Shown: positions 765 to 31,309, numbered from the stretch's first letter. The stretch is DNA of 64,000 nucleotides from Candidatus Binatia bacterium (GCA_963667495.1 OY763426.1:4878927-4942926); one strand, 5' to 3'. The notes: a model not told the origin generated them from the sequence alone. Made by a program: numbers and translations.

Positions 765-1788
765 TCATCTCACTGACGGGATGACTTCTTTGGCAAATCG
801 TTCAATCGTCGTACGCGCCACCGCTTCATTCTGGGTTGTCACAAAGATAGCAATATCGGTCAGGCCGGCGGCTTTGAGTTCATACGCTTTGTCAATACAG
901 TCTTGCGGCGTTCCGGCAATGGTACATTTCCGGGCAACGACATCAGGAATAAGTTCCCGATGTTTGGCGGTCAAGTCAAGATGCTCAGAGAAACGGTAGC
1001 TTTCGGTCACCGCTTTCACCACATCGGCATGCTCAAGGCCAAGCGTATCCGGCAGCCAGAGTTTGTTGGCGATATTCCGCGCTGCGGTGGGACGCACCTG
1101 ATCGAGTGCCACGCTCCGATCATCGTCAATGGCCGCGTCAATTGCGGCGATAAAGCGGAGTTGGGCGGGGTCCTTACCCGCTTTTCGTGCACCTTCACCC
1201 GCCGCCTCAACCGCAACCCGCGCACCCTCCCCGTTTCCGCCCATATGGCCATCAACAATAACGCCGTCGCCTATTTCACCGATCAGCGCGGCGGCTCGCG
1301 GACTCATGATCGCAACCTCGATGGGCACCTTCCCCCACGCTTCAGCCCCGGCCACTCTCAGCCGTAATTCCTGGCCCCAGGTTTTCTTTTGCCCAGGGTT
1401 GGACACAGCCGGAGCTTCCACCTCTTGTCCGGACAGCAAATTGCGAATAAAGACTACATCCCGACGCAGTTGGTCTCGCTTAGCCGGGGATAGGCCCGCG
1501 GTTCTCACGGCCGAGTCGCCTGCACCGATACCGAGCACGGCGCGGCCTTGGCTGAGCATATTGAGCGAGACCATTGCATTGGCCGTCACGGTTGGATGGC
1601 GGGTGACCAGATTCGTCACACCGGGCCCGAGTTTCACCCGTCGTGTGGCTTGGGCGCAGCAGGCCAGACACATATAGACATCGTTCCACAGCATCTGCGA
1701 GTCACCGACATACACCGTCTCAAAGCCACCGGCTTCGGCGCACTGGGCGAGGCGAAGTAGTAGGGCCAGATCATGACACTAAATCGCA
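765..1788 (-). CDS. Luciferase-like monooxygenase (LLM, flavin/F420-dependent family). The 5' end is apparently frameshifted.
   Basis: The ORF 765..1715 translates to LLM hallmarks (AEAGGFETVYVGDSQ ... LGPGVTNLVTRHP ... LGIGAGD). A strong SD plus ATG sits at 1788 and encodes MRFSVMIWP (the LLM beta-1 signature), but in a different frame from the downstream LLM body. The frame switch is near 1745-1752. This is either a single-base indel or a sequencing error. Confidence 0.6.
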
Positions 1789-1898
1789 TCGCTCCTCTCT
1801 CCGATATGTCTCATTCAGCAGTTCACTGACTTATCCCTTCCACTTTTCTTCAAACATCATTCTGAGAGGAGACTGCCTTTAGGTGCTGCAGCTCCACG

Positions 1899-2153
1899 TT
1901 ACGCCGACTCAAGACCCGCACTAAGCTGTCTAGCCTGCTGGTCGAGCCCCTGAATGGCGGCCTGTATTGCGTTGATTTCGCGCTCCTCGAAATATGCCTC
2001 ACCACACTGCTCACATACCCAGGCGGGGACCGTGTCAAACACCAGGTGATAGCCTTTGCGATCAATATGGAAAGGCGCGTTCGAGTGCTCCATCTGTCCC
2101 TGACAGTGGATGCAGTTCATTGTGACCTCCTTGTACGTAAGTTTTGCTCCCAT
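1899..2153 (-). CDS. YgiT-type zinc-finger protein (MqsA-family antitoxin-like)
   Basis: 84 aa with CIHCQG...CEQCGE zinc ribbon followed by a short helical tail. Overlaps the upstream DUF4258 gene. Confidence 0.6.
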   Translation of the reverse strand: MGAKLTYKEVTMNCIHCQGQMEHSNAPFHIDRKGYHLVFDTVPAWVCEQCGEAYFEEREINAIQAAIQGLDQQARQLSAGLESA

Positions 2154-2443
2154 TCTTCCGCTGTAGGGAGATACGCCGTGATTATCGCAAGCAAATCCTC
2201 TTTAGGCGCGCAAACAACGTGGATATCCCGCTGGTCAACGCCCTGGCCATATAGCAGGCAGCTATGGCCGCGTACATCCTCGGGGTAGTCCTCGATTAAC
2301 TCACCTTGCATAATAATCGCTCGAACCTCACTTGGCGTAATCATCCTATCCGGCCGTGCCATTTGGCGAACTGCATGGGGAAGAAAAAGTATGCGTTGAG
2401 TAGCAGCGCGTCGTATGCGTTCAAGAATGTCTTGTGAAACCAT
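2117..2443 (-). CDS. DUF4258 domain protein (toxin-like)
   Basis: The internal start MVSQDILERIRR... was chosen. The core ILFLPHAVRQMARPDRMITPSEVRAIIMQGELIEDYPEDVRGHSCLLYGQG...IHVVCAPKEDLLAIITAY is typical of DUF4258. It lies between the HicB-like and YgiT genes. Confidence 0.6.
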   Translation of the reverse strand: MVSQDILERIRRAATQRILFLPHAVRQMARPDRMITPSEVRAIIMQGELIEDYPEDVRGHSCLLYGQGVDQRDIHVVCAPKEDLLAIITAYLPTAEEWEQNLRTRRSQ

Positions 2444-2486
2444 TCCTTCAATCTTGTCGCTATAATCGGCAAGAGGCTCGATGGAG

Positions 2487-2657
2487 TTAGGGTATCCCCT
2501 TTTCCGCCCGCATCTCAAGGCAAAGGACAATGGCTTCCTTGATATTATCGAGAGCCTCACCCCTCGTTTTGCCTTGACTCACACACCCCGGAATTGCGGA
2601 GCATTCAACAACCCATATCCCGTCTTCGTCTCGATCAACCGTCACATTAAATTTCAT
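2487..2657 (-). CDS. HicB-like / UPF0150 family antitoxin
   Basis: MKFNVTVDRDEDGIWVVECSAIPGCVSQGKTRGEALDNIKEAIVLCLE matches the HicB N-terminal fold pattern. The start was set at MKFNV. Confidence 0.55.
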   Translation of the reverse strand: MKFNVTVDRDEDGIWVVECSAIPGCVSQGKTRGEALDNIKEAIVLCLEMRAEKGIP

Positions 2658-2697
2658 TTTTTCCCCTGAGGTCCAAGGTTTGCAGTATAGAATACCT

Positions 2698-4452
2698 CTA
2701 ATCCTCTCCACTGCCCTGTCGCAATTGCGCGGTTTTTATAGCATCAACCTCGAATGTTATTGGATCCACCACTACCCCATAGTCTCGCTGTGCGCTTTCA
2801 ATAGAAACCAATCCATCCTTTACGTCTTGTACGACCTTTTCGATAGCACGCTTTTTGGGGTCGCCAAATCCGCCTCCGCCACTTGAGAGCAGTTCCACTT
2901 CATCTCTTTTGGACAGGGTACTCATGGAGTTGACGGCGACCTCTTCCGTCCGGCCGTCGGCATAGTGAAAAATCTGCCGGTTGGGCGGTGCGCCCTGTCC
3001 TCCCCGCAGGCCGAACGGTGCCGTGGCGGGTTGGGTACCGCTCCCGAAGTTCGCACACGCAATATTGTCAGCCTCGACCCGCCAGCGATAAGTCACACCC
3101 ATGCCACCCCGCCATTGCCCGGCTCCGGCGCTATCCTGACAATACTCAAACTGCTCAATGAAATACGGGTTGACCAGTTCGTGCAGTTCAGGGTCCGGCG
3201 AACGCAGTCCCCCCAGACATATGGCAGTCCCGATGTGGTCCCAGCCGTCAAAGCCGGCAGTGGCTCCGCCGCCACCTTTACTTAAAAAGTGAATCTCCCC
3301 GAACGGCCGCCCGGTACGTGGATTCATACCCGTGGTGGCTGGCGCACACCAGCGTCCCCAGGCGGCCTGAACACGCTCAGGGATAACCTCCGCCAGGGCC
3401 AACCAGATTGCTTCGGTTATGGTTTCGCCGGTTAAGACCGTACAGGCCGTGCTTGGTGCTGGCTCGACCGGATTCACCACACTCCCGCTCGGCGCCACGA
3501 TGGAAACCGGCCGCATGGCCCCTTCGTTATGTGGCACCTCGGAGTTGACCAGAGTAAACAACGCCAGGTAGCTCGCGGAAGCGGTATTGGCAAACGGACT
3601 GTTGACATAGCCGGGGACCTGACCGTCTGAGCCTGAGTAATCCAACGCTACAGACTCGTCCTGCACTTCGACTTTGACCCGGATGGTCACCGGCCGGTCG
3701 TGGACAACACCGTCGTTGTCGATCTGTCGCTCGGCCAGATACCTGCCATTCGGGATCGTTCGAATTTCCTCGCGCATGTGTTTTTCCGAGGCATCCAGGA
3801 GTTGCTCAATAACCTGCTCGACAACGGCGATTCCATGTTTCTTCACCAGCGCGGAGATATTGCGTTCGCCCAGGCCGGCGGCGCCAACCAGACACTGCAA
3901 ATCCCCCTCGACCAAAAACCGCAGGCGCACATTGGACACAATCATTTCCCACAGGCCGCGATTGATCTTTCCCTGCTCATAGAGTTTTGCGGGTGGAATC
4001 CGTAGCCCCTCGTCCCACACATCGCGTGCTTCCGGGTGATAACCCGCCGCACCGCCACCGCCTGTGTCTGCCTGATGTCCTTTCGTGACCGCCCAGAAGC
4101 GCAGTTCGCCATCAATATAAACCGGCTTGGCAATCGTAAAATCAGGCGGATGATTATTGCCCCGATACGGATCGTTGAGAATGAAGACGTCGCCCTCGTG
4201 CGTATCGTCGGCATAGGTCTCGGCAATCGAACGGACCGCCCAGGGCGTTGCAGCAAGGAGGATTGGAATATAAGCCGTCTGAGCGACCAGACGGAGCTTG
4301 CGGTCATAAATAGCGGTCACAAAATCGCGCGCCTCACTAAAAATGGGCGAGCGCGAGGTCCGCAGCATGGTCTGGCCCATTTCTTTGGTAATCGAGTCCA
4401 AGCGGTTCGCAATGACCGATACAAGGATCGGATCAATCCTGTCCGTTTGCAT
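2698..4452 (-). CDS. hyuB: Hydantoinase B / oxoprolinase family protein (HyuB-type)
   Basis: 585 aa starting MQTDRIDPILVSVIANRL. Conserved N-methylhydantoinase B / acetone-carboxylase-type blocks (ILNDPYRGNNHPPDFT, GLRIPPAKLYEQG). The start overlaps the end of hyuA. Confidence 0.85.
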   Translation of the reverse strand: MQTDRIDPILVSVIANRLDSITKEMGQTMLRTSRSPIFSEARDFVTAIYDRKLRLVAQTAYIPILLAATPWAVRSIAETYADDTHEGDVFILNDPYRGNNHPPDFTIAKPVYIDGELRFWAVTKGHQADTGGGGAAGYHPEARDVWDEGLRIPPAKLYEQGKINRGLWEMIVSNVRLRFLVEGDLQCLVGAAGLGERNISALVKKHGIAVVEQVIEQLLDASEKHMREEIRTIPNGRYLAERQIDNDGVVHDRPVTIRVKVEVQDESVALDYSGSDGQVPGYVNSPFANTASASYLALFTLVNSEVPHNEGAMRPVSIVAPSGSVVNPVEPAPSTACTVLTGETITEAIWLALAEVIPERVQAAWGRWCAPATTGMNPRTGRPFGEIHFLSKGGGGATAGFDGWDHIGTAICLGGLRSPDPELHELVNPYFIEQFEYCQDSAGAGQWRGGMGVTYRWRVEADNIACANFGSGTQPATAPFGLRGGQGAPPNRQIFHYADGRTEEVAVNSMSTLSKRDEVELLSSGGGGFGDPKKRAIEKVVQDVKDGLVSIESAQRDYGVVVDPITFEVDAIKTAQLRQGSGED

Positions 4453-6571
4453 TCCACGCCCCTTCCGCACCGGCCGGGCGACCGCCCAACGCTGTCAAGA
4501 GTTCGCCAAGTGGTCGCTCGGCCAGATGCATGGCATAATTACGGTAGGCATCACAGACCAGACGATAGCCAGGCGGGACCAGGACGGTGGTGTTGGACTG
4601 TTCGATCAAGGCCGGTCCGGTGAGAGCCATGCCGCAATCGAACTGCTCCCCAGCATACACAGAAACCTGATGCGGCGTACCGGAGAAATACGCTTGACGC
4701 TTGCCTTTGAGCGCGACAGTCGGGTCCGCGTCTCCAAGAAGACGTGGCGTAAGTCTCGGTTTCTCTGTAAGTCCCAGCGCCTTGACCCGCAGATTGATCA
4801 TTTCCAAAGCAGCTCCCGGCATGGCATATCCATAGAGCGCCTCATGGAGACGATGAAAACGTGCGGCGACTACCGCCAGTTCGGGTTCCGAGAGAGGGGG
4901 CTGGACCGGGACTTCGACCTCATGAAATTGGCCAACGTAGCGCACATCGAAGGTTGTGCGAATCTGTATTTTCTCCGTTGGGATGCCTTCCGACGCTAAG
5001 GTTGCTCGTGCCTGCTCTTCAATCTCCCTCAGGGTACGGTTGATCTCGTCGGGAACGATGGCGTCCCACTCTCGGGTGAAGGTCTGAACGTAGTCGTGCT
5101 GTAAATCAGAGATCAGCATGCCGGCCGCACAGAATACCGATGACTCCTGGGGAATCACAACCAGCGGAATATCCAATTCTCGGGCTATCATCCCGGCGTG
5201 CAACGGTCCGGCTCCACCGGCAACCACAAGAGCAAACTCACGCGGATCATAGCCCCGTTCGACCGAAACACCCTGAAGCGCCGTCGCCATGTTAGCGTTC
5301 ACAATGCGATAGATACCCTCGGCGGCCTCAATAGGAGAGAGGCCCAAGGGCTCGGCGATCGTGTTTGTCACCGCACGCTGAGCCCCATTATAATCGAGGG
5401 GCATCTCCCCGCCTAACAATCCATCTGAGGAAAGATAGCCAAGAACCAAGTTGGCATCTGTCACTGTGGGTTCGACTCCGCCGCGGCCATAACATACTGG
5501 ACCTGGCTCAGCTCCGGCACTCTTGGGTCCGACCTGGAGAATCCCCCCGGCATCGATCCAGGCAATACTACCCCCACCGGCGCCAACCGTGTGGATATCC
5601 AGCACGGGCAGAGCCAATCGATGGCCGCCAATCTCCCCCTCCGTTGTTGTCACCGGCTGACGGTCGTGAATGAGACAAGCATCAAAACTGGTCCCGCCCA
5701 TGTCAACCGTGATCACGTCACGCAGGGCGTAGGTGTCAGCATAGAACACGCCGGCCATGGGTCCGCCAGCCGGACCGGATAGGAGGGTATTCGCGGCAAA
5801 GCGGCGTGTCAGGTGGGGCGACATCACACCGCCATTCGACTGCATAATGAGCAAGACGCCGGGAAATCCCGATTCGTCCAACTGACTTTCAAGCTGAGTC
5901 AGATAACGCGACAGCGGGGGGCCAACGCTGGCGTTGAGGACGGTGGTGGAATGTCGCTCATAGGCCCGAATTTGCGGCAACACTTCAGAAGATAAGGACA
6001 CATACACCTTGGGTAAGGCCTCCTGGATAAGCTGACCGGTTCGTCGCTCATGGGCCGGATTTAAGAAAGACCACAGATAACTGACCGCCACCGCTTGGAT
6101 AGCATGCGTCCGGATGTGTGCAATCGCGTCCATCACATCCGCTTCGTGCAGGGGGGTTACCACCGCACCCTCAACATTGACCCGTTCGGTAATGGGATAA
6201 ATATGCGTCCGAGGAACCAAAGGTGGTGGCGGGCCGTATTTGCTATCGTACTGACGTTTGCGCAGCCCCCGCCGCATATTGAGCACATCGCGAAAGCCGC
6301 GCGTCGTCAGCAAGGCGGTCTTGGCCCCTTCCCCAGTCAAGACGGCGTTGGTCGTAATGGTCGTCCCATGAACGATGACGCTGACGCGGCCAAGGAAATC
6401 CGACAGCTCACGCTCGAAAGAAGCGGCAATCTTGCGGAGTCCCTGCAAGACGCCGACCGCGGGCTGGTGGGGCGTAGTCGGCGTCTTATAGATTTGAGCC
6501 GCGCCCTGCGAATCCGTGACAAGAAAGTCGGTGAACGTGCCGCCGACGTCAATGCCGATTTTGTATTTCAT
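4433..6571 (-). CDS. hyuA: Hydantoinase A / oxoprolinase family protein (HyuA-type)
   Basis: The start MKYKIGIDVGGTFTDFLV (actin-like ATPase fold motif) overlaps the DUF35 stop as ATGA. The family is recognisable along the whole length. Confidence 0.85.
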   Translation of the reverse strand: MKYKIGIDVGGTFTDFLVTDSQGAAQIYKTPTTPHQPAVGVLQGLRKIAASFERELSDFLGRVSVIVHGTTITTNAVLTGEGAKTALLTTRGFRDVLNMRRGLRKRQYDSKYGPPPPLVPRTHIYPITERVNVEGAVVTPLHEADVMDAIAHIRTHAIQAVAVSYLWSFLNPAHERRTGQLIQEALPKVYVSLSSEVLPQIRAYERHSTTVLNASVGPPLSRYLTQLESQLDESGFPGVLLIMQSNGGVMSPHLTRRFAANTLLSGPAGGPMAGVFYADTYALRDVITVDMGGTSFDACLIHDRQPVTTTEGEIGGHRLALPVLDIHTVGAGGGSIAWIDAGGILQVGPKSAGAEPGPVCYGRGGVEPTVTDANLVLGYLSSDGLLGGEMPLDYNGAQRAVTNTIAEPLGLSPIEAAEGIYRIVNANMATALQGVSVERGYDPREFALVVAGGAGPLHAGMIARELDIPLVVIPQESSVFCAAGMLISDLQHDYVQTFTREWDAIVPDEINRTLREIEEQARATLASEGIPTEKIQIRTTFDVRYVGQFHEVEVPVQPPLSEPELAVVAARFHRLHEALYGYAMPGAALEMINLRVKALGLTEKPRLTPRLLGDADPTVALKGKRQAYFSGTPHQVSVYAGEQFDCGMALTGPALIEQSNTTVLVPPGYRLVCDAYRNYAMHLAERPLGELLTALGGRPAGAEGAWNANGQD

Positions 6572-7044
6572 GCTGTGACAATTTTCACGGGGGAAGTTTC
6601 CCCCACGCCCCCTCGGACCAGGGTAAAAGTCGGCACATAGCGTTCGTCCCCCTCGGGGTCCCGCCCGACCGCAGACGGGCAGAGGCGGACAGTGCATCCC
6701 CGCTCAACCTGGGTAGGCTCCGTTTCAACTAGTCGCGTGAAGATGCGCAGCCCTTCGACCAAGACTACGGCAAAAATCAACGGACGCGGAAAGCCCGGCG
6801 GGACGCCGGCATCTTGGATGGTATAGGCGTGGATCGCCCCCCGGCTCGGCAGTTCAACCCAGTCGAGCCGATCCGAGAGACATTCCGGACAGACTACACG
6901 CGGTGGCCAGTGGCGCAGGGCACACGGCGGACAAAATGTTGTGAGCAGCTTTTGCGATCGCAGGGCTTCGTAAAACGGAGCCAGTCGGGTGTTCTGACTG
7001 CCCTGGAGTGGAAAGGGATCGACGGCGCGGAAATACTCGCTCAT
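6568..7044 (-). CDS. DUF35 OB-fold / C4 zinc-ribbon protein (thiolase partner, BbsA/ChsH2-C-like)
   Basis: CPPC...CPEC zinc ribbon followed by an OB-fold region. It sits directly downstream of the thiolase with a GGGAG SD. Confidence 0.7.
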   Translation of the reverse strand: MSEYFRAVDPFPLQGSQNTRLAPFYEALRSQKLLTTFCPPCALRHWPPRVVCPECLSDRLDWVELPSRGAIHAYTIQDAGVPPGFPRPLIFAVVLVEGLRIFTRLVETEPTQVERGCTVRLCPSAVGRDPEGDERYVPTFTLVRGGVGETSPVKIVTA

Positions 7045-7050
7045 GGGCTA

Positions 7051-8214
7051 CTACTCCCGCCCGTAAATCATAACCACATGCTCGCCCATGCCACTATTAT
7101 TATGCGTCAGTCCGATATGTGCCTCCGGGACTTGGCGCTCGCCGGCCTCCCCGCGTAGTTGCCAAAAGGCTTCGACCCCCTGAGCCACCCCCGTGGCCCC
7201 AAGCGGATGTCCGCAGCCCATCAGTCCACCGCGCGGATTAACAACCACGTCACCGCCATAATCGGACCGTCCTTCCGCAGCGAACGGACCGCCTTCGCCC
7301 TTAGAACAGAATCCAAGCTCTTCATAGGCAATAATCTCGGCGATGGCAAAACAATCGTGAACCTCGGCAAAATCGACCCCGCTCGCCGGTATCCCGGCCA
7401 TGGCATAGGCGTCCCCGGCGGCCTGTTTCATAGCCGGCCAACTGGCATAATCCGGGTCTAGGCTAGAGACAGAAAACCCGTGGACTGCCTGTCCGGTTCC
7501 GCGGATAAAGACGGGCTTATCCGTTATATCCCTGGCTCGCTCTTCGCTCGCCAGAATAACGGCCGCAGCACCATCGGTGATAGGCGAACACATAAACAGC
7601 CGGAGCGGAGATGCGATCATGCGCGAGCACACAACGGCGTCCAAGGTGACCCCGTTCTGAAAATGGGCGTACGGATTATTGCTTGAATGTGTATGGTTTT
7701 TCACCGCCACCTGAGCCAGTTGCTCTTCTGTTGTGCCGTATTCAGCCATATGCAGTTGGGCAGCCAGGGCAAAGGAAGGCGGGGCGGTGAGTCCAAAACA
7801 GGCTTCCCAGTCTCGGTCCACCCCAGCCCCCATATTCAGCACGGCCTCACCCATATTGGGGAGATTGAGCTTCTCGACCCCCAGCACCATGACGACATCG
7901 GCCAGACCGGCGGCAATAAACGCGTAGGCATAGCGTATCCCTGCCGTGCCACTGGCACACATATGTTCGGTCCGGGCCGAGAGCTTGCTTGGTTGAATGC
8001 CCAGCGTTTCCGCGGCAAGCGGAGCAATATGACTTTGAAAGGCCGCCCGCTCAGGCAGGACAGCACCGACGACCAGCCCTTCGATATCCTTGGGTGTCAG
8101 GGGCGGAACAGAAGCAAAGCAGGCCCGGCCAGCCTCGGCCAGCAATTCCCGAAAGCCGGCTGCGCGCACCCCAAAGCGCGACAGTCCCGCCCCAACCAGG
8201 GCAACCCGACGCAT
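7051..8214 (-). CDS. Thiolase-like protein (SCP-x / non-decarboxylating thiolase family)
   Basis: MRRVALVGAGLSRFG...CASGTAG (active-site Cys region) ...GCGHPLGATG (C-terminal thiolase motif). Start at the ATG at 8214, which has AAGGAG upstream. Confidence 0.8.
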   Translation of the reverse strand: MRRVALVGAGLSRFGVRAAGFRELLAEAGRACFASVPPLTPKDIEGLVVGAVLPERAAFQSHIAPLAAETLGIQPSKLSARTEHMCASGTAGIRYAYAFIAAGLADVVMVLGVEKLNLPNMGEAVLNMGAGVDRDWEACFGLTAPPSFALAAQLHMAEYGTTEEQLAQVAVKNHTHSSNNPYAHFQNGVTLDAVVCSRMIASPLRLFMCSPITDGAAAVILASEERARDITDKPVFIRGTGQAVHGFSVSSLDPDYASWPAMKQAAGDAYAMAGIPASGVDFAEVHDCFAIAEIIAYEELGFCSKGEGGPFAAEGRSDYGGDVVVNPRGGLMGCGHPLGATGVAQGVEAFWQLRGEAGERQVPEAHIGLTHNNSGMGEHVVMIYGRE

Positions 8215-10225: not shown

Positions 10226-10717
10226 CTATTCCGTCTGCGTCATCTGATCAGGAGGGACAGAAACGACGTCTTCAGAGGGCTTATGAAAAGTTTCCGCTAC
10301 GTCAAAGGAACCGCGCAGTGAATACACGTCATCTTTGAACATGGGTAAGTGAGAATAGTAGGCACGATGGTAATAGCAGCCCAGGCCCTCACCCGGCGCT
10401 GCGGTTTCCTCCTCGACAATAGTGTCGGAAATTGTAGCGCTTCCGCTCTCTATCGAGGGGGGTGTCTTGACTGACGCGATATCAGGCTGTGCAGCCTGTT
10501 CAGCGTGACTTTTTTCAGTCAGCGTATCAGCATCATCCTTCCGGGTCGGTGTCGGCGGTCGGTGAGACGGATTTTCAAATTTGTCGAGCCAGCCGTAATA
10601 CGCGGAAGCCTTGGGTGCCGTTGGTTGCGGCTCTCCTTCTGCCCGGAGATCGCTGGCGATCAACACAATGCCAAGACTCAGAACGATAGTCAGGATGTGT
10701 TTCATACTGAAGCCCAT
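10226..10717 (-). CDS. Small secreted hypothetical protein sharing a motif with the adjacent DUF1329
   Basis: Signal peptide MKHILTIVLSLGIVLIASDLRA. The C-terminal GCYYHRAYYSHLPMFKDDVY parallels GTFYHKAYHSQMAMFPDNNY in the DUF1329 protein. Confidence 0.45.
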   Translation of the reverse strand: MGFSMKHILTIVLSLGIVLIASDLRAEGEPQPTAPKASAYYGWLDKFENPSHRPPTPTRKDDADTLTEKSHAEQAAQPDIASVKTPPSIESGSATISDTIVEEETAAPGEGLGCYYHRAYYSHLPMFKDDVYSLRGSFDVAETFHKPSEDVVSVPPDQMTQTE

Positions 10718-10806
10718 GTTCTCACCGTTCAGCGTTCTTATTGTAAGCCGCAACGTACAAGGGGAGCAGCTAGGCTGCTCCCCTCGGAGATGTCTTCTGA
10801 GGCTGC

Positions 10807-12249
10807 TTAGCGGTGCAGCTCGGTCAGACGGTTGAGGTCGTACAGGCCGTTAATGAAATCCATCGAAAAGTCAGGCAGACCACCGCCGTATTCACGCCAC
10901 AGGTTGCCGCGACCGTTCTGGATGTCGACCGTGTCCACGTTCCGCCAGTGAATCGCGCCACGATTGGCGTTCATGAACGTATACTTCTTGGAGTCGTCAG
11001 CCCACTGGTAGCCCCACTGCCACAGCTTCCACAGCTTTCCTTTCCGGTCGAAAGCGACGTGGTTCCAGGTTTCCCAGGTTTCCGGGTCGATCGCCATGAT
11101 GGCGCTCTTATACGGATGACGCGGGTCTTTCGGGATACGTTCCACCACGAACAGCTCGCGGATCTGCCACACATCCATATTGAGCCAGCCATCCGGTCCA
11201 CCATACCGCACACCATCATCATCCCACTTGGTTTTGGCGTGAACGGTCAGGAATTTCTTCTTGCCCCAGAACTTCCAGTCCCACTCAAGCGGACGACCCG
11301 AGAAGCCGTAGAAGTCTTCCAGCGTATGCTCAGTCCCCATCAGCGAGTCGGACTTCACCTCAGCCGAAATCCGGCGAACACGGCGCAGACTGGGAACATA
11401 GGCCCAACCATCATCGGTCCGACGGGGGTCGATATAACGCTGGATGATGAACGCGGTGCCCCGCACGTCGTACGGCTCGAAGAAACCGGTGAACTCTTTC
11501 CAGTGCACGGTTCCGGCGTCATCGTTTTCGGGCAAGTTATAATTGTTGTCCGGAAACATGGCCATCTGGGAGTGATACGCCTTATGATAGAAGGTTCCCA
11601 AGCTGCGCTCGTAGGTCCCGCCACCGCCATAGATCTCTTCCGTGTTATATTCCCAGTCGGTGTCGAGATCGATCTCGTCACCAATCCAGGCATCGGGCGG
11701 CTTGGTCGGCTCGGGGGCGGTATGCGTTCCGCCAAAGCGCAGCCACGTGGTCAACGCATTGGCCACGAAATATCCGCGCCAGTAAAAGCGTTTGTCATAG
11801 TTCCAGGCGACCTTGAGGCCCGCGATGCTGTCGTCGCCTTCACTCATAATGTCGTCGTTGGCAAACGGGTAGCCACAGACGTAGTTCTCAAGCGCGCCGT
11901 CAGCGGACAGCGCAACCTGCTTCTGGAACTTCTCGTCGCACTCCAAAACCGTCTGGTGCGCCTTCACGTGATAGGTTTCTACCACTTCCATACTGAGTGA
12001 GCCGTCGTTCCACTTCTCATACTGCTCGAAGTAACCGGGGAACATAAACGGCTTCACCTTGGGCAAGTCCGCATGGGTGAGGACATCGCCGGCTTTGAAC
12101 TCCGGCTCAACATCCTTGGATTGACTGAACCATTGGACAAAGGTGTCATGCGTATACTGCGTGGGGTCACCACTCTGGGCCCACACGCTGGTCTGTGCCC
12201 ACAACAGGCTACAGGCCGCGAGAAACGAAATCGCTGTGAGTCGTTTCAT
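10807..12249 (-). CDS. DUF1329 family protein (LolA-like, periplasmic/outer membrane associated)
   Basis: Signal peptide MKRLTAISFLAACSLLWAQ with GAGGAGGA SD. Length and blocks (ADGALENYVCGYPFA, VPSLRRVRR, LEDFYGFSGRPLEWDWKF) match DUF1329. Partner of DUF1302. Confidence 0.75.
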   Translation of the reverse strand: MKRLTAISFLAACSLLWAQTSVWAQSGDPTQYTHDTFVQWFSQSKDVEPEFKAGDVLTHADLPKVKPFMFPGYFEQYEKWNDGSLSMEVVETYHVKAHQTVLECDEKFQKQVALSADGALENYVCGYPFANDDIMSEGDDSIAGLKVAWNYDKRFYWRGYFVANALTTWLRFGGTHTAPEPTKPPDAWIGDEIDLDTDWEYNTEEIYGGGGTYERSLGTFYHKAYHSQMAMFPDNNYNLPENDDAGTVHWKEFTGFFEPYDVRGTAFIIQRYIDPRRTDDGWAYVPSLRRVRRISAEVKSDSLMGTEHTLEDFYGFSGRPLEWDWKFWGKKKFLTVHAKTKWDDDGVRYGGPDGWLNMDVWQIRELFVVERIPKDPRHPYKSAIMAIDPETWETWNHVAFDRKGKLWKLWQWGYQWADDSKKYTFMNANRGAIHWRNVDTVDIQNGRGNLWREYGGGLPDFSMDFINGLYDLNRLTELHR

Positions 12250-12278
12250 AAATCCTCCTCTAAGAAAATTCACCGCTC

Positions 12279-12308
12279 TATTTTTGGTTGCCGTTTTTGG
12301 GAAGTCAA
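12279..12308 (-). promoter_or_regulatory. Candidate internal promoter upstream of the DUF1329 gene
   Basis: The minus-strand TTGACT-N17-AAAAAT sits about 20 nt upstream of the GAGGAGGA SD, just downstream of the CCCTCCCCC-GCAA-GGGGGGAGG hairpin at about 12372-12393. Confidence 0.25.
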
Positions 12309-12401
12309 TAATACCTCAGCAGGTATTTTTCTAATTTTAGCCAGAACGAAGGGAGCAGCCCTCCATCCTGACCCTCCCCCGCAAGGGGGGAGGAAGGGTT
12401 A

Positions 12402-14546
12402 CTAGAAACGATAGCGCAGTCGGCTCCAGAATTCGTTCATCTTATTCCGCTCCGAGCCACCGGCCTGCATGTGGAACAGGCCGAAACCGGCTTCCGTATA
12501 CGGGTTGTTCGGGTCGCCCGTAAAAGCGCCGAACGCGCCGAGATCGTGTTTATGCCGTCCACCCAGAAACGCGGTGAAACCGAGCGTAACCGACCAGTTA
12601 TTGGTGATCAGATACTCGATATTACCGCCGGTCGTGCCGTCCTGGGCCGCGGTGCCGAACGCGCCAAAGACCAGGTAGACCAGTTGGTCGCGCATGAAGT
12701 GATTCTGCGCGAACACGGTGAAGATGAAGTTGTTGTTCTCGGCGGTGATGCCGCGGCGGCCGGCCCTCACATCGGGAAAGTGGGTTCCGTACGCCTGGGC
12801 GCTCAGGAAGAAGCTCCGCGTCGGGTTGAGCCAACGGATCAGGGTCGGCCGGTCAATCCCCAACACCCACTTGAAGGAGTTGCCGTCCCCGATCAGATCG
12901 ACCTTGGTCGTGTCGTTCAGCATCACGTTAGCGCTCCAGGACGATTCCCAGCGGAACACAAGGCCGGTGTACGGCTCGAACCAGTCGAGCGACAGGCCCA
13001 GCGTGTTGGTCTTGCGGTATCTGGCGGACAGCGAGCCGCCGAAGGTGCAGTGGTTGTGATATTCGGCGTGGCGGAATTTCTTCTTGGTGCCGTATGACGA
13101 CCCACCTTCTTTGAAGAGGGCTGCTTGCCTGACCTGGATCTGCTTCGGCTTGACGCCGACTATGACTGGACCAAGGCCGCCTGTGTTATTAACAACGGTG
13201 CCACCGTCCTTGGCGGTAATACCGACACCCGGCGCTTCATTCCGGTCCGCGGGCAGAATGCTGTTCCCGTTTCCGTCTGTCGTACACTCTGGCCGATTAG
13301 AGACGTTAAGGCGGTCCCAGCCGGTCGCGGGCAAGTCGGCAAACGCGAAATAGTCGGTGACCTGGATACGCAGGTTGCCGGCTGTGGCTTCCCAGCGCAT
13401 CCCTATGCCGCCGTTCTTCAGATTCCAGTGAGGAGCCCGGTTTTTGTACAGTGCCATGTTCTTGAACGGGAGATAGGGCCTATCTTCCGTTGCCATAGTC
13501 GGGTCGTCGGCCGTGCCGGGGAAAAGGGCGGTTGCAAACAGATCGTTCCCGAACACGAAGCCGTCTATCGTCCGTCCGAAGCCCGTGGCCCAGGGTTGGG
13601 CCGGGTGACCGAGACCGGTCGGCGTGTGGCGGTCGAAGACATACACGACACCACCGGCCACATCGCGCAGTGGGCCGATGTTGCCGAAGCGATGCTCGAA
13701 CAGGGCCGACCACAACGGCACGCGCGTATCGTCGAACAGATCAATGAAGAAGTGGTCGCCGAAGTCGACCGGGTTCACGATGTCTTGCAGGCGGAAGAAG
13801 TCGGCCTTCCCCCACACGTGCTGCTGCTTCCCGATACGCAGCCAGTTGCGACCGCCGAGGCCCTTCCAGAAGAAGTCGAAATACGCCTCGCGGACGGGAT
13901 AGTACAGGTCCATATTGGTCTCGCGGGTCATACCGAAGCGCAGGTCGTTCTGGCTGGCGTCCAGGCCGTAGTAGCCTCTGCTACGCGAATCGATATCGCG
14001 ACCGGCTACTCCGTACTTCGAGCCGGGGACCAGAGCGTGCATGAACTCGACGTTGCCCCCTGCCCCACCTTCCTTTGGCCAGAATCCGGCGTAGTTACCA
14101 GGATTAAGCCCAAAGGCCTGGAGGAATCCGGCATTGGCCGGTTTGGGATAACCGGAACGCCCAGAGACGAAGCGCTTGCCCTCGCCTTTCCGACCGTTTC
14201 CGAACTTGTCGTCTATGTCGTAGATCGACTCGTACTGAGGCCGCAGTTCGATGAAATACTCGAAGCGGTCAAAGTAGTCCTGCATTGCGTACAGGGGACC
14301 GGCCAACTGCACGCTGGCCCGGTAGCGGGACGACGCGACGTGATAGTCGGTCTTGAAGGTATTGTTCCGTAGAATGGAGAAGTTGTCCACGTAGCCGTGG
14401 ATGGCCATTCTATCGAAACTATCCAGGAGTCCTTTGTCTCCGCGCCCTGCCGCATCCACAGATGGAATAGCGAGCGCCATACTCAGACCAATGGCTGTTA
14501 TAGTCAGCCAGAGTCCGGCCAGCTTCCCTCTCCCTGCTCGTTTCAT
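12402..14546 (-). CDS. DUF1302 family outer-membrane protein
   Basis: Signal peptide MKRAGRGKLAGLWLTITAIGLSMALA. About 700 aa, alternating beta-strand-like composition, and a C-terminal ...RLRYRF (terminal Phe typical of OM barrels). Confidence 0.75.
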   Translation of the reverse strand: MKRAGRGKLAGLWLTITAIGLSMALAIPSVDAAGRGDKGLLDSFDRMAIHGYVDNFSILRNNTFKTDYHVASSRYRASVQLAGPLYAMQDYFDRFEYFIELRPQYESIYDIDDKFGNGRKGEGKRFVSGRSGYPKPANAGFLQAFGLNPGNYAGFWPKEGGAGGNVEFMHALVPGSKYGVAGRDIDSRSRGYYGLDASQNDLRFGMTRETNMDLYYPVREAYFDFFWKGLGGRNWLRIGKQQHVWGKADFFRLQDIVNPVDFGDHFFIDLFDDTRVPLWSALFEHRFGNIGPLRDVAGGVVYVFDRHTPTGLGHPAQPWATGFGRTIDGFVFGNDLFATALFPGTADDPTMATEDRPYLPFKNMALYKNRAPHWNLKNGGIGMRWEATAGNLRIQVTDYFAFADLPATGWDRLNVSNRPECTTDGNGNSILPADRNEAPGVGITAKDGGTVVNNTGGLGPVIVGVKPKQIQVRQAALFKEGGSSYGTKKKFRHAEYHNHCTFGGSLSARYRKTNTLGLSLDWFEPYTGLVFRWESSWSANVMLNDTTKVDLIGDGNSFKWVLGIDRPTLIRWLNPTRSFFLSAQAYGTHFPDVRAGRRGITAENNNFIFTVFAQNHFMRDQLVYLVFGAFGTAAQDGTTGGNIEYLITNNWSVTLGFTAFLGGRHKHDLGAFGAFTGDPNNPYTEAGFGLFHMQAGGSERNKMNEFWSRLRYRF

Positions 14547-14641
14547 AACGAGGTCTCCTTCCTTGCCCCTCGCCCTCACGAAGGGAAAATCTTTACTACC
14601 CCCAGAGGGGCCATTTGTCACAACAATCCCTCAAACTTTTA

Positions 14642-17065
14642 TCAGCTCGTTGGTTGCGGGCTCGGCTCCGCCATCATTGGCTGTTCTTCCTCAACCTGCA
14701 CAGGCTGCCCAACCACAAACTTCGGCTTCACAATCGCAATCATGGCCGGAATCATAGTCAGTGCCGACAACCAGTGTGTCACCAGCAGAATGGCCAATAA
14801 CAGGGCCATCTCCGCAGAGAAGCGCAAACTCGACAGAAAATACCACGGAATCACCCCGGCAATCATCGTCGTAGCGGTAAAGGTCACAGCCATACCCGTT
14901 GTTGATACCGTTTTTTTGATTCCTGCAATCAGGTCGCCCCCGGCCCGTGGGACTTCGAGTCGAATCCGGTCAACGACATATAAGATGTAGTCCACCCCAA
15001 TACCCATCCCCACCGCGGTCACCGGCAACGAATTGATATTAATGCCGATGCCCATAAAGGAGACGTACATATAACTGGCCACCCCCGCGGCAACGAGCGC
15101 GAGCATCACCAAGGTTGCCGCAATCAGAGAACCGTAGCTCAAAAGGACAAGGGTGTAAACGGTCATAATGACGAGCATGGCGGCCTGCTTCTCGGATCGA
15201 TCAATTTCCTCATTCAGTGCAGCCGTCGTACCGATAAATCCGCCGGCCAGGCGCAGACTTACCCCTTCAATAGGATGTTCGGCCATGAATTTCTTCGCCC
15301 TGGCGATTGCCTCGCGAACGGTATCGCCTTTCACGTCTTTGTAAAACACGACAAACTGGCCATTCTTGTAGACCATATCGGTGTACTCAAGAATAACACC
15401 CGATATAGGAGCTGAGGCTTCATACACGAAAATCAAATTTCCAGTGATAGATCTATCAGGCGGAATGACCTGCCAGCGTGGGTCGCCATAATGATAGCGG
15501 CGGTTCAAATTACGCGCCAAAGTGTACAGCTCGCGCGTGTCCCCCGCCTCAACCTGCTCCAACAGATAGCGGCGCATTTCCTCAAGGGTATCGAGCACAT
15601 GCGGCTCTTTGAGGATATGTTCCCGCTCGCCTTCCAGATAGATCACCAGTTGATTGGCCCCGGCAAATCGCTCGTTAATCGTCCGTGCGGACACATTGTA
15701 ATGGGCATCCTGCCACAGCAGCGGAGAGCCAGCTTCCTGTTCCCCAATCGGCACCGTAATCGCGGTCCGTACGCCAAAAAAGATGGTCACCGCGGCAACA
15801 ACCATAATCACCCAGCGGCTGGTTGCCCCGGTGGCGATATTGCCGACCGTGGTCAGTGTGACCTCCATCCAACGCGGAATAAAATGTTCCGTTGTCTTTG
15901 GGGTCGGGAAATACGATAACAGGATGGGCATGGTATGCGTAATGCAGAAAATATTGGCGAAGGCCCAGAAACTCCCGTAATAGGCCAGCTTTTCGATCAG
16001 AGGAATGGTGGCAACGGACAGGACCAGAATCCCACCGGCATCGCTGATGACACCCGTCACACCCGGCAGAAACAAGTCACTCAGACACGTAAAGGCCGCT
16101 TTCTCCTGGTCTTTTGAGACTTCGAGTTCTTCGAAATAGCGCTCAATCATCTGCACCGCGTGGCTGACCGAGCGAGCCGTGATCAGCAGCGGGATCACCA
16201 GGATGAGCGGGTCCAGATTAAAGCCCCACCAGCCGACCCAGCCCAAGCCCCATACCGTCTGGATGGCTGCGCCAATCAATGGGACGAGCACCCCGTAGGC
16301 CCGCCGAAAATAGATAATCAGCGCAAGAAAGACCATTATTCCGGTGAAGGAGAAGATCATGAACAGCTCACCGGTGAAAAACCACACCCAGCCTTTGAGG
16401 GCCGGCTCGCCAGCGACGTACACTTTTGTATTGTCGTCTTCTATTTCACTCCGGATGCGCGTGATTTCCCGTTGAATCTCCCGGTAATCCAACCGATCTT
16501 CGTTAAATCCGGCCAGAACGAGTGCGGCTTTGCCGTCCTCTGAGACGTATTTGTTCATAACGATATCGTTATTGAACATCTCGAACTTCAGCGCGCTGAG
16601 CTCATTGGGATCGTCCGGTATGTCAACGGGAAGCACCGGATACGAACGCACCATGCCGCCAGGCAAGGTCTTGATGTTGCGGATTTTCACGTGGGAAAGC
16701 GAAGCCACCTGGTTATGGTCCACACCGTTGATCTGGTCGAGCTGGTCCGTAAGGTAACGAACATTTTCCAGGTTTCCTTGGGTGAAAATATCACCTTCCT
16801 CTACCTGGAGGACCGCCGTCACAATATTGGCCCCACCAAAGGTCGTCCGATGCTGGTTGTAAGCTTGGATATAGGAATGGCCTTGGGGCAGGAGGTCGGC
16901 AAACTGGCTATACATTTCGACCTTCCGCGCCTGATAGCCCCACATGGCCGTCGCTATTGCCAATAGCACGAGGTACGCAATACGGTGTCGCCAGAGAACT
17001 GCCAGATAGGCTTGAATAATACGGTCGGCGGTGCCTTTTGGTTGACCTGGGGGAGTATGGGCCAT
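14642..17065 (-). CDS. RND-superfamily exporter (MMPL / HpnN-like sterol-sensing-domain transporter)
   Basis: 807 aa with two blocks of about 6 TM helices separated by soluble loop domains. Starts 21 nt upstream of the DUF1302 gene. Confidence 0.8.
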   Translation of the reverse strand: MAHTPPGQPKGTADRIIQAYLAVLWRHRIAYLVLLAIATAMWGYQARKVEMYSQFADLLPQGHSYIQAYNQHRTTFGGANIVTAVLQVEEGDIFTQGNLENVRYLTDQLDQINGVDHNQVASLSHVKIRNIKTLPGGMVRSYPVLPVDIPDDPNELSALKFEMFNNDIVMNKYVSEDGKAALVLAGFNEDRLDYREIQREITRIRSEIEDDNTKVYVAGEPALKGWVWFFTGELFMIFSFTGIMVFLALIIYFRRAYGVLVPLIGAAIQTVWGLGWVGWWGFNLDPLILVIPLLITARSVSHAVQMIERYFEELEVSKDQEKAAFTCLSDLFLPGVTGVISDAGGILVLSVATIPLIEKLAYYGSFWAFANIFCITHTMPILLSYFPTPKTTEHFIPRWMEVTLTTVGNIATGATSRWVIMVVAAVTIFFGVRTAITVPIGEQEAGSPLLWQDAHYNVSARTINERFAGANQLVIYLEGEREHILKEPHVLDTLEEMRRYLLEQVEAGDTRELYTLARNLNRRYHYGDPRWQVIPPDRSITGNLIFVYEASAPISGVILEYTDMVYKNGQFVVFYKDVKGDTVREAIARAKKFMAEHPIEGVSLRLAGGFIGTTAALNEEIDRSEKQAAMLVIMTVYTLVLLSYGSLIAATLVMLALVAAGVASYMYVSFMGIGININSLPVTAVGMGIGVDYILYVVDRIRLEVPRAGGDLIAGIKKTVSTTGMAVTFTATTMIAGVIPWYFLSSLRFSAEMALLLAILLVTHWLSALTMIPAMIAIVKPKFVVGQPVQVEEEQPMMAEPSPQPTS

Positions 17066-17171
17066 GTTATTCCTCCTTACGCGAGCAGGGGCGTAATAGC
17101 GTGTGAGTAATGTGTCCTGTTTATAGGCATGTCAGTCATGACAGCGCCGTTGGGCTGATGGATATACACCC

Positions 17172-18407
17172 TTAGAGGGACGGGTTCGCGGCATAGAGCT
17201 TTGCCTTATCCGTGGTGGTCCAGCTCTTGCCACCGTCAGACGTGACCAGAACCGTGCCCTTTCCTCCACACGCAACGCCAAACTGTCCGTCAGATGCAAA
17301 AGACGCCGTGCGAATCCATGTCAGCACATGCTGACGGACATCGTCGTCAAGCTGCCAGGCATCGCTTGTGGCCGAGGCCATCGTGCCAAGGACGCCGGTC
17401 GCAAAGTCATTACGGTTCTCATTTGGAGCAGCAGTCACGGACAGGAGTGTGTTAAAACTTCCGCTTGGAATATTTGTCCACGTCTCCCCCGCATCTGTCG
17501 TTTGTAATAACGTGCCACTCTCCCCCGTGACATACCCCTCCTGGGCGTTCCGAAAATCTACATCAATCAGGAAGAGGTCTTCAATATAGAGAGGGGGGAT
17601 ACGCTGCCGGATCGCTTCCTCTTCGGAGAGTTCCGGGCGGGTGTATTTCGGCAGGTTGTGCACATTGCGTTGCCGCTGCCAGGTGACGCCACCATCCTGG
17701 GTGCGCAAGATAATTCCAAATTCGCCCGTGACCCACCCGTCCGTATTCGTGGGGAAGGACACACCGTTCAGCGTCACATCGCACGGATTCAGCCGCAGGG
17801 TTGACTCGGGATCATCCGCGGGGTCCGACGTTGCGAAATTATCGAAGCTCAAATCGCACCACAGCGAGAGATTTTCCCAGGTTTCTCCACCGTCTTGTGA
17901 ACGGATAACCGCGCCCACCGGACCGACCGCCCAAATATGTTGTGCGTCCGCACCACGGCTGACCGCAAAATAGTGCGGCTGGGCTACCTGCCAGTCTTGA
18001 AGGGGCAATTCGATAGGAATTTTATTCCAGGCTTTTCCGCCGTCGCTGGTCTTGAGGACGATCCCATCCTGTCCAACGGCAACCCCGTCCTGAGCAGTCG
18101 CAAAATCAATCTCGTAGATTGCCTTTTGGACTCCGGTCTCCAGCATGGCAAAATCTTGTCCGTTATTGGTCACATGCAGAATGAGCCCCCGTCCGCCGGC
18201 GACCCAGGCATTATTGGCGTCAAGGACAAAAGCGTCATAGAAATCTTCACGGTCGGGAAACACATTCCCCCTGGACGCTCCCATTTCGTTGAGTTCACGC
18301 AGCACCTCTTCGTCGGCTGCTTCAACACAAGCAGACAGCGTAAAGAGGGCGGCGGCCAGAATGCTCCAAGCCGCACGCCGCCACACCAAATGCATTTGTC
18401 TTTTCAA
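17172..18407 (-). CDS. Ycf48-like / BNR-repeat beta-propeller lipoprotein
   Basis: Lipobox LSAC after the signal peptide. Repeated DGGxTW / SxDGGxxW motifs (TSDGGKAWN, SQDGGETWE, TQDGGVTWQ, TTDAGETWT, TSDGGKSWT). Confidence 0.7.
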   Translation of the reverse strand: MKRQMHLVWRRAAWSILAAALFTLSACVEAADEEVLRELNEMGASRGNVFPDREDFYDAFVLDANNAWVAGGRGLILHVTNNGQDFAMLETGVQKAIYEIDFATAQDGVAVGQDGIVLKTSDGGKAWNKIPIELPLQDWQVAQPHYFAVSRGADAQHIWAVGPVGAVIRSQDGGETWENLSLWCDLSFDNFATSDPADDPESTLRLNPCDVTLNGVSFPTNTDGWVTGEFGIILRTQDGGVTWQRQRNVHNLPKYTRPELSEEEAIRQRIPPLYIEDLFLIDVDFRNAQEGYVTGESGTLLQTTDAGETWTNIPSGSFNTLLSVTAAPNENRNDFATGVLGTMASATSDAWQLDDDVRQHVLTWIRTASFASDGQFGVACGGKGTVLVTSDGGKSWTTTDKAKLYAANPSL

Positions 18408-20189: not shown

Positions 20190-20227
20190 CGCTATGGAGA
20201 GAGGACACATTGCATGGAGGAGTCACT

Positions 20228-21382: not shown

Positions 21383-21394
21383 CAGGAGACCTTC

Positions 21395-21727
21395 ATGCCG
21401 CGCAAAGCAAAAGGCAAGCGCCCGACTTTTTTCAACGACCCCCAGATCGATACGGTTATGGGGATTGTCATGGCCCTGGCCGGCGAGGTCTCTGTGCTGC
21501 GGGAACGCCTCGACAGCGTTGAGCGTCTCGCTGCTGCCAAGGGCCTGTTCACCCAGCACGACATCGAAGCCTATCGTCCGGATGACGCCATTATGGCCGA
21601 ACGGGAACGCTGGCGGGCGGAGTACCTCGAACGGGTCCTACGGGTTGTCCATCAGGAGTTGGAAGAAACCGACAAGGGCGAGACCACGGAATCATACCAA
21701 GCTGCGGTTCGCGCGGTTTCGTCCTGA
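21395..21727 (+). CDS. Hypothetical small protein
   Basis: 110 aa, helical. No family recognised. Confidence 0.35.
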   Translation: MPRKAKGKRPTFFNDPQIDTVMGIVMALAGEVSVLRERLDSVERLAAAKGLFTQHDIEAYRPDDAIMAERERWRAEYLERVLRVVHQELEETDKGETTESYQAAVRAVSS

Positions 21728-21804
21728 CGGCACAGAGAGCACGGGAAAAGGCGACCAACCCGTACCCGTGAATCAGCCCCTGAATCAGAAAGTGCAGGCT
21801 CTTC

Positions 21805-23859: not shown

Positions 23860-23861
23860 AG

Positions 23862-24761: not shown

Positions 24762-24836
24762 CGAAACTCCAATGCGCCGGTTAAGAGCTGAATTAGCCTG
24801 ACTGATTCGACCACAAGTATAATCGAGGGAGAATCA

Positions 24837-25228: not shown

Positions 25229-25290
25229 CGTGCTGTAGGCGTAGGTCTCGTTGCCCTTCGCTCATCCGACCTATGTAGAGGAGCAGTGTT

Positions 25291-27180: not shown

Positions 27181-27257
27181 CCCTTTGTCTTTACCCTGTT
27201 CCTAAGGAAGAGAATGAAGGTCAGGGACATCGAGCACTCGCCTGTCATTCGAGACCA

Positions 27258-27764: not shown

Positions 27765-27795
27765 TCGCAGCATCACAAAAAGCGAGGAGAGACCT

Positions 27796-28551: not shown

Positions 28552-28599
28552 ATTCGCGTCCCTTGCTCCTCCCCACTGCCGCCTATAGACTCAGCCGCC

Positions 28600-31302: not shown

Positions 31303-31309
31303 AGCGGAG

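Follow-up and report, generated by a model that had tools for sequence, protein, structure and literature searches.

The closest described systems and the Binatia locus

The iaa operon for the anaerobic degradation of indoleacetate (auxin) in Aromatoleum aromaticum and A. evansii, reportedly the subject of work by Ebenau-Jehle in 2012 and Schuhle in 2016 and 2021, is a precedent for the locus considered here, a block of four genes encoding a thiolase, a DUF35 protein and the HyuA and HyuB subunits of a hydantoinase-family enzyme in a Candidatus Binatia bacterium. The iaa pathway comprises the ligase IaaB, a predicted 2-oxoindoleacetyl-CoA γ-lactamase of the Hyd family, the transferase IaaL, the mutase IaaGH and IaaF, a decarboxylating benzylmalonyl-CoA dehydrogenase, after which β-oxidation leads to 2-aminobenzoyl-CoA (PMC8360864, PMC5214803). 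It pairs a (predicted) ATP-dependent lactamase of the HyuAB type with a CoA-dependent side-chain shortening that closes in thiolysis; the acetophenone carboxylase (Apc) pathway also finishes by thiolysis, of an aroylacetyl-CoA. The Binatia block lies in a stretch of 64,000 nucleotides (GCA_963667495.1 OY763426.1:4878927-4942926), the whole of which was analysed and is called the window below.

We propose, with moderate confidence and on the strength of sequence comparison, that the block is a module in which the ATP-dependent opening of a lactam would be coupled to thiolytic C-C cleavage of the CoA thioester of the ring-opened product. The initial annotation of this DNA had envisaged ATP-driven activation or ring cleavage followed by thiolysis of a CoA intermediate, and this core idea is sound, but it is not new in principle, since the iaa operon, which that annotation missed, precedes it. 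To judge from its sequences, the block looks like a trimmed, re-assorted (mosaic) relative of the iaa operon and not a new kind of system. Literature searches returned nothing pairing DUF35 with a hydantoinase, oxoprolinase or thiolase, and nothing relevant for acetone carboxylase or hydantoinase in Binatota.

Layout of the four-gene block

ORF listing and direct reading place the genes as follows.
7051..8214, minus strand: SCP2-type thiolase, ATG 8214 to TAG 7051, 387 aa
6568..7044, minus strand: DUF35 protein, ATG 7044 to TGA 6568, 158 aa
4433..6571, minus strand: hyuA, ATG 6571 to TGA 4433, 712 aa
2698..4452, minus strand: hyuB, ATG 4452 to 2698, 584 aa

A Shine-Dalgarno sequence, AAAAGGAG, stands 7 nt upstream of the thiolase ATG, 6 nt separate the thiolase stop from the DUF35 ATG, the ATGA at 6571-6568 contains both the hyuA start (ATG) and the DUF35 stop (TGA), and hyuA and hyuB overlap by 20 nt. 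The four genes thus abut or overlap on the minus strand as had been claimed, and the identities first given to them agree with Pfam and NCBIfam in all four cases, with the catalytic motifs intact. A promoter and terminator scan gave background level only.

A 4-nt ATGA overlap is frequent in bacterial operons and unremarkable alone. The one seen here is confined to the species of the window; its relatives have a gap of ~35-415 nt between the DUF35 gene and hyuA, or a gene for a luciferase-like monooxygenase (LLM) in between. Of the coupling originally claimed, the overlap itself stands for the window, while translational coupling is not kept in relatives. On sequence comparison, the above-chance feature is the co-directional adjacency of these genes, kept across diverged lineages and in two thiolase clades, and not the overlap.

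The thiolase/DUF35 pair and its iaa-type sister clade

The thiolase has the Pfam domains Thiolase_N and Thiolase_C_1, and in alignment to 6esq_A (its best PDB match), 7yvy_A and 6hsj_A the nucleophile Cys88 (EHMCASG), the HDCF acid/base motif (~285-288) and GHPLGATG can all be identified. In its catalytic Cys, HDCF and GHP motifs the protein agrees with active thiolases, and unlike Ltp2 it has kept the nucleophilic Cys. Its best NCBIfam matches are generic thiolase and acetyl-CoA acetyltransferase models. The DUF35 protein, identical copies of which occur on eight metagenome contigs, has the Pfam families zf-ChsH2 and OB_ChsH2_C only, that is a complete CxxC...CxxC zinc ribbon (CppC...CpeC, the four Cys being visible in the alignment) plus an OB fold; its PDB matches are ChsH2(DUF35) (6ok1_B), an archaeal DUF35 protein (6esq_E) and BbsA (7pxp_A). 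It is presumed to be the non-catalytic partner of the thiolase.

Known thiolase/DUF35 complexes (archaeal 6esq, BbsAB 7pxp, ChsH2(DUF35)-Ltp2 6ok1 and PhlABC 5m3k) share with the window the SCP2-type thiolase fold and the adjacent DUF35 gene. The window pair scores far under the equivalog cut-offs for BbsA and BbsB, the benzoylsuccinyl-CoA thiolase, and differs from the archaeal acetoacetyl-CoA thiolase/3-hydroxy-3-methylglutaryl-CoA (HMG-CoA) synthase/DUF35 system (6esq) in having no HMG-CoA synthase gene nearby: the window ORFs that were scanned contain no domain of this enzyme, and the NCBIfam model NF053570 gave 351.6 bits, short of its cut-off of 600. A mevalonate-pathway role for the pair was rejected because that gene is absent from the ORFs scanned.

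Homologues of the thiolase form a very large set at 75-79% identity, the few source-named ones belonging to Methylomirabilota/Rokubacteria and Anaerolineae. A single architecture is shared by L093-L096 (4/4) and, wherever the flank suffices, by practically all of another 77 metagenome loci (L103-L179): GntR, HyuA, HyuB, acyl-CoA dehydrogenase (ACAD), then MaoC, a short-chain dehydrogenase/reductase (SDR) or an alpha/beta hydrolase, followed by thiolase, DUF35, B12-binding/mutase, Mo-hydroxylase, family III CoA-transferase and a PaaK-like ligase. The thiolase of the window is 76-79% and its DUF35 protein 46-53% identical to the pair in these clusters. Since NCBIfam holds no Iaa-specific models, the published GGG motif, which stands in place of YEG only in IaaF orthologues (PMC8360864), was used as the diagnostic; it is present in the ACADs of L093-L096 (4/4 examined), and the iaa assignment of the metagenome clusters is made on gene content and this motif. 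From the iaa-like gene content and the GGG ACADs, the thiolase of these clusters is a predicted 2-aminobenzoylacetyl-CoA thiolase.

Metagenomes from soil and groundwater contain iaa-type clusters in great abundance, and the distribution seen is much wider than the range of Aromatoleum, sulfate reducers and Ferroglobus cited in PMC8360864. The clusters occur in sub-variants, in which either MaoC and SDR or an alpha/beta hydrolase come after the ACAD and ahead of the thiolase, and many have a second ACAD (~38-40% identical) upstream of hyuA.

In a neighbour-joining tree of thiolases (this and the HyuA tree were bootstrapped and built on tblastn-derived translations), the Binatia-type clade and the iaa-type clade each have 100% bootstrap support and their joint clade 91%, with a Bacillota homologue and remoter sequences outside it. 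The window type is the sister of the iaa-type and is not nested within it. The Bacillota thiolase (L015, 63% identical) represents a third lineage, located beside DUF35, MaoC, SDR, ACAD, mutase and hyuAB genes, the last 49% identical to those of the window.

The HyuAB half has another history. The HyuAB of the iaa-type clusters belongs to another Hyd lineage, 39-41% identical to that of the window and separate at 100% bootstrap. A thiolase that is sister to the iaa-type one next to a HyuA that is distant suggests that the Binatia block arose by joining an iaa-related pair to another Hyd-branch lactamase. Several iaa features are not in the block, namely the B12 mutase, the IaaL CoA-transferase, IaaF with its GGG motif, the Mo-hydroxylase, the CoA ligase, MaoC/SDR and GntR; the window type instead carries an F420-type LLM, or in one relative (L102) an ACAD with a GEG motif, and a SnoaL-like protein. 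The suggestion that the window HyuA is closer to the caprolactamase subunit CapA than to the iaa-type HyuA was dropped, the values (39.5% vs 39-41%) being about equal.

The nearest HyuABs outside the block are encoded beside acyl-CoA mutases, beside an AMP ligase, MeaB and an ACAD, beside an ACAD and Mo-hydroxylases, or beside dihydropyrimidine-dehydrogenase-like and amidohydrolase genes. CoA-transferases are also among the neighbours of many HyuAB relatives, together with B12 acyl-CoA mutases, ACADs and Mo-hydroxylases. This recurrent pairing of HyuAB, CoA-pathway genes and a thiolase of this family argues for a functional tie.

Conservation of the block and its downstream region

The check on context conservation that had been suggested for the thiolase and DUF35 genes with hyuAB turned out positively: the block was found again in seven relatives at HyuA identities of 68-86%, among them L009, L089-L091, L101 and L102, whose thiolases are 83-94% identical. 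The order thiolase-DUF35-hyuA-hyuB-LLM-SnoaL is found in L009, L089, L090 and L091, with HyuA identities of 86, 80, 73 and 68%, respectively. L101 has the order thiolase-DUF35-LLM-hyuA, and L102 has thiolase-DUF35-hyuA-hyuB-ACAD-SnoaL with quite other genes upstream (Rieske oxygenase, amidohydrolase and CCP_MauG-like); its ACAD, with the GEG motif, retains the catalytic Glu. Among the matches listed, the closest genome is the Candidatus Binatia metagenome-assembled genome OZ252051.1 (HyuA 86%), and a contig profile search with the HyuA alignment returned mostly distant HyuAs, L009 being the single close relative among the matches listed.

In four near-identical strains (L001-L004), hyuB (598 aa) overlaps a 348-aa LLM gene, followed by genes for a SnoaL-like protein, a HEAT-repeat protein, a 129-aa protein, an alpha/beta hydrolase and a second LLM. 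The corresponding region of the window contains the following features.
765..1789, minus strand: LLM oxidoreductase gene (F420-type), frameshifted by comparison with L001
297..761, minus strand: SnoaL-like (NTF2-fold) gene, Pfam SnoaL and SnoaL_2
1803..2697, minus strand: toxin-antitoxin (TA) cassette of ~0.9 kb after the hyuB stop, from Pfam and blastn against L001
2487-2657: HicB-like antitoxin gene, Pfam HicB_lk_antitox
2117-2560: DUF4258 toxin-like gene, Pfam DUF4258
1899-2153: MqsA-like zinc-finger gene, a weak MqsA match

The first LLM has its best matches among F420-dependent LLM families, all under their cut-offs. Its gene starts at ATG 1789 and reads MRFSVMIWPY, after which (codon 10) there is a net deletion of 22 nt relative to L001; the residual ORF (765-1715) has lost the first 32 codons. 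The SnoaL-like protein is 73-99% identical in L001-L004, L009, L089-L091 and L102 and is a downstream companion in every relative with enough flank. By blastn, ~1 kb of the window (1757-2755) stands in place of ~0.1 kb of L001, an insertion found in the window strain only. The TA cassette is not part of the pathway. Truncation of hyuB by the insertion was considered and rejected, as the HyuB C-terminus has its homologue in L001 and the damage is limited to the LLM gene. Another TA pair (DUF433/DUF5615) is located directly upstream of the thiolase gene in L091. The operon extent first proposed holds for the four genes; the continuation into LLM and SnoaL seen in relatives, the TA cassette and the LLM frameshift had escaped notice.

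Several observations weigh against the proposed lactam-to-thiolysis module. The DUF35/hyuA overlap is not kept in relatives. The LLM of the window strain is frameshifted and split off by the TA insertion, so that the second half of the operon may be in decay or not needed. L092 and L097 (HyuA 65%), although nested in the Binatia-type clade, have no thiolase pair, their HyuAB genes being next to YdjM and Mo-hydroxylase genes; while the whole clade has 100% bootstrap support in the HyuA tree, monophyly of the thiolase-linked members has only 10%, which leaves a single loss of the link or two separate gains. Genes for a CoA ligase or transferase, an enoyl-CoA hydratase and a 3-hydroxyacyl-CoA dehydrogenase are missing from the block; the closest gene for a family III CoA-transferase is 23 kb off, and one for a 3-hydroxyacyl-CoA dehydrogenase lies at 46 kb. 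Finally, the window HyuA is not an orthologue of the iaa-type lactamase, IaaC/IaaE, so the analogy to the iaa operon rests on the thiolase/DUF35 half and the context. The general idea of ATP-driven ring cleavage followed by thiolysis draws support from the sister pair, which occurs with hyuAB in iaa-type clusters, and from the HyuAB relatives located by CoA genes, but not from any CoA-activation or β-oxidation gene in the block.

Most of these observations would also be expected if the two gene pairs were independent neighbours, with the thiolase and DUF35 protein serving general β-oxidation or acetoacetyl-CoA metabolism and the adjacency being synteny inherited within Binatia. Such an explanation accommodates the lack of further β-oxidation or CoA-activation genes, an overlap seen in one species only, in place of which relatives have up to ~415 nt or an LLM gene, the HyuABs of L092 and L097, the decayed LLM of the window, the generic NCBIfam models that the thiolase matches best, and the insertion of TA cassettes within the region (window, L091). 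It is nevertheless unlikely. The block is kept down to a HyuA identity of 68%, and also in the different neighbourhood of L102; fortuitous adjacency, raised at the outset as the main threat to a shared pathway, is therefore not borne out. In addition, hyuAB genes of other lineages also accompany the sister thiolase clade (~80 loci) and the clade of L015, and if there were no functional tie it would be difficult to account for three thiolase lineages with different hyuAB neighbours.

HyuAB is a predicted ATP-dependent amidohydrolase

HyuA contains the Pfam domains Hydant_A_N, Hydantoinase_A and Hydant_A_C, and HyuB matches Hydantoinase_B (529 bits, E 1e-158). On these grounds HyuA is the putative ATP-binding (ASKHA) subunit and HyuB the putative metal-dependent hydrolytic subunit of a predicted two-subunit ATP-dependent amidohydrolase. 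The bit scores against characterised enzymes and models are given below.
Caprolactamase 6yra (PDB): HyuA 554 bits, HyuB 367 bits; top match for both subunits
N-methylhydantoinase 7hk5 (PDB): HyuA 490 bits, HyuB 263 bits
Acetophenone carboxylase (PDB): HyuA 383 bits, HyuB 125 bits
Acetone carboxylase (PDB): HyuA 259 bits, HyuB 47 bits
Caprolactamase equivalogs NF050156 / NF050157 (NCBIfam): HyuA 707.6 bits, HyuB 448.8 bits; cut-off 1000

The caprolactamase CapAB of Pseudomonas jessenii (6yra) is the top-scoring characterised homologue, N-methylhydantoinase (7hk5) is second, and both stand far above 5l9w, 5m45 and 5svb in the PDB search. In NCBIfam the caprolactamase models are likewise the best matches, yet under their cut-off of 1000. 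Besides the two-subunit architecture, the window enzyme has in common with CapAB the ATP-site motifs (Asp8, ITVDMGGTSFD and GAEPGPVCYG of HyuA, the last with the adenosine motif GAEPGP, conserved in alignment to 6yra_A), the metal site (Asp43/His101/Asp104/His126 of HyuB, equivalent to Asp41/His99/Asp102/His124 of CapB in alignment to 6yra_B) and Tyr138, the equivalent of CapB Tyr136; the roles of the CapAB ATP site and metal tetrad are described in PMC8453981. The identity of CapA to HyuA is ~40% (39.5% global). The two enzymes differ in the CapB pocket, where Leu38 is replaced by Glu and the vicinal Cys410-Cys411 by a single Cys in HyuB, and in genomic context.

The Hyd branch of the superfamily is characterised by two genes ordered hydAB, the absence of a γ subunit and a β subunit of ~570 aa (Weidenweber et al., PMC5214803), and the window HyuAB has all three features. 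HyuB-type subunits were taken as ~570-600 aa for Hyd, ~680 aa for Apc and 720-780 aa for acetone carboxylase (Acx); HyuB has 584 aa in the window and 598 aa in L001, as against 581 for CapB, 684 for Apc δ and 776 for Acx α among PDB chains. There are only two subunit genes: no Acetone_carb_G match was found in the neighbouring ORFs scanned, and the overlap of hyuB with the LLM gene in intact relatives leaves no room for a γ gene. Although they share the superfamily, Apc and Acx are thus set apart from the window enzyme by subunit number, size and scores.

These data bear on a reading in which HyuAB would carboxylate an (aryl) methyl ketone with ATP and bicarbonate and the thiolase would split the aroylacetyl-CoA formed after CoA activation. 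The chemistry predicted for the sister-clade thiolase, which would act on 2-aminobenzoylacetyl-CoA, is that of the benzoylacetyl-CoA thiolysis following acetophenone carboxylase (PMC5214803, PMC8360864), and caprolactamase itself is bicarbonate-dependent (PMC8453981). Ketone carboxylation is nonetheless very unlikely here, given that the γ (Cys4) and α′ genes are not there, HyuB is too short by comparison with Apc and Acx, the carboxylase scores fall far under the hydrolase scores (391.9/126.6 bits against a cut-off of 1500 for the NCBIfam ApcC/ApcD models) and the block has no CoA ligase. Of the 'ring-opening or carboxylation' originally put forward, ATP-dependent ring opening is favoured, and carboxylation is unsupported by the Hyd-type architecture, the subunit size and the scores.

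The notion that the DUF35 protein is an accessory zinc subunit of HyuAB, similar to the Cys4 γ subunit of ketone carboxylases, and not a partner of the thiolase is hardly credible and was rejected: its Cys4 zinc ribbon, the overlap with the hyuA start and the position of the γ gene ahead of the HyuA-like gene in apc operons (PMC5214803) speak for it, but only zf-ChsH2 and OB_ChsH2_C are found by Pfam, the closest homologues come after the thiolase and not hyuA in iaa-type clusters, solved DUF35 proteins partner SCP2-type thiolases or aldolases, and the overlap is not kept.

Proposed reaction sequence

Under the proposed coupling of lactam opening to thiolysis, HyuA would phosphorylate the amide carbonyl with ATP, a mechanism taken from the family and consistent with the conserved ATP-site residues. 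The activated intermediate or lactim would pass to HyuB, to be hydrolysed at the Asp-His-Asp-His metal site, as the conserved residues suggest. The ring-opened acid may already be a CoA ester, or may be activated by an enzyme encoded elsewhere. Oxidation to a β-ketoacyl-CoA would follow, possibly by the LLM (the ACAD in L102) and the SnoaL-like protein, which are candidates by their conserved position only. The thiolase, with DUF35 as a scaffold, would then split off acetyl-CoA and leave a shorter acyl-CoA that is probably an aroyl-CoA or another bulky one, the substrate class being suggested by the sister clade.

A more specific version is distinctly unlikely: a compact pathway, independent of a mutase, that would turn a lactam into acetyl-CoA and an aroyl-CoA (or another acyl-CoA), and in which the iaa-type pair has recombined with an unrelated HyuAB, and the LLM and SnoaL-like protein replace the canonical dehydrogenase and hydratase of β-oxidation. 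As a speculation, the substrate of such a route could be a six-membered benzo-lactam, e.g. 3,4-dihydro-2-quinolinone; opening of its ring gives 3-(2-aminophenyl)propionate, whose carbon skeleton does not have to be rearranged.

The second hyuAB copy and the rest of the window

The initial annotation had noted a second hyuAB copy with LLM, methyltransferase, SDR and major facilitator superfamily (MFS) neighbours, all of which are there.
21805-23859: hyuA2
25291-27180: hyuB2

Its description as a differently decorated pathway holds as far as the copy and its neighbours are real, but the second hyuAB is a very distant paralogue (~38% and 33% identity to the first), with no relation to the first demonstrated. 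The cluster (19167-32560) comprises, in order, an F420-type LLM, a methyltransferase-domain protein, a 110-aa ORF, hyuA2, a 299-aa ORF, hyuB2, a 168-aa ORF, SDR, MFS and DUF1329, together with a convergent family III CoA-transferase that is 45% identical to the iaa-cluster transferase. The unannotatable 299-aa ORF (23862-24761), plus a 530-nt gap, separates hyuA2 from hyuB2; the ORF is absent in L079, the closest HyuA2 relative.

Upstream of the four-gene operon, positions 10226-18407 encode a DUF1329 (LolA-like) protein, a DUF1302 protein, an MMPL/RND-type transporter, a BNR/Ycf48-like protein, a 630-aa TPR protein and a 175-aa ORF without a Pfam family. This conserved set, which may serve to take up or export hydrophobic substrates, keeps its synteny in L001-L003, L090, L091 and L101 but is absent from L102; a second DUF1329 copy (29878-31302) adjoins the second hyuAB cluster. 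Positions 32910-41288 look like a defence or mobile island, with GC down to 0.51 and genes for a ResIII/DEAD helicase (880 aa), DUF1902 (HicB-related), an N6/N4 DNA methylase and two pentapeptide-repeat proteins.

Molybdenum hydroxylases make lactams from N-heteroaromatics. A 3-hydroxyacyl-CoA dehydrogenase gene followed by a three-subunit Mo hydroxylase (MoCoBD large, FAD_binding_5/CO_deh_flav_C medium and 2Fe-2S small subunits) is found at 54476-59293; at a distance of 46 kb from the hyuAB-thiolase block, no link is shown. The window encodes five paralogous LLM oxidoreductases, one of them between two Amidohydro_2 (decarboxylase-type) genes. LLMs, an FMN-dependent dehydrogenase, a nitronate monooxygenase-like gene and a tandem EthD-domain protein at 44293-47755, 51462-52544 and 63080-63763 point to a broad oxidative catabolic region.

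Implications for Binatia and the HyuAB clade

The Binatia, uncultured bacteria that abound in soils and sediments, have a catabolic repertoire known from annotation only. By context, the routine labels 'N-methylhydantoinase/oxoprolinase' for HyuAB and 'acetyl-CoA acetyltransferase' for the thiolase are probably wrong here. The thiolase family (~80 loci at >75% identity) marks clusters for CoA-dependent degradation of N-heterocycles or of the auxin type, and the proposed module provides a testable handle for a large, unassigned HyuAB clade, i.e. assays of lactams with ATP followed by β-ketoacyl-CoA thiolysis. As what looks like a mosaic, the Binatia block illustrates the modular re-assortment of pathway halves.

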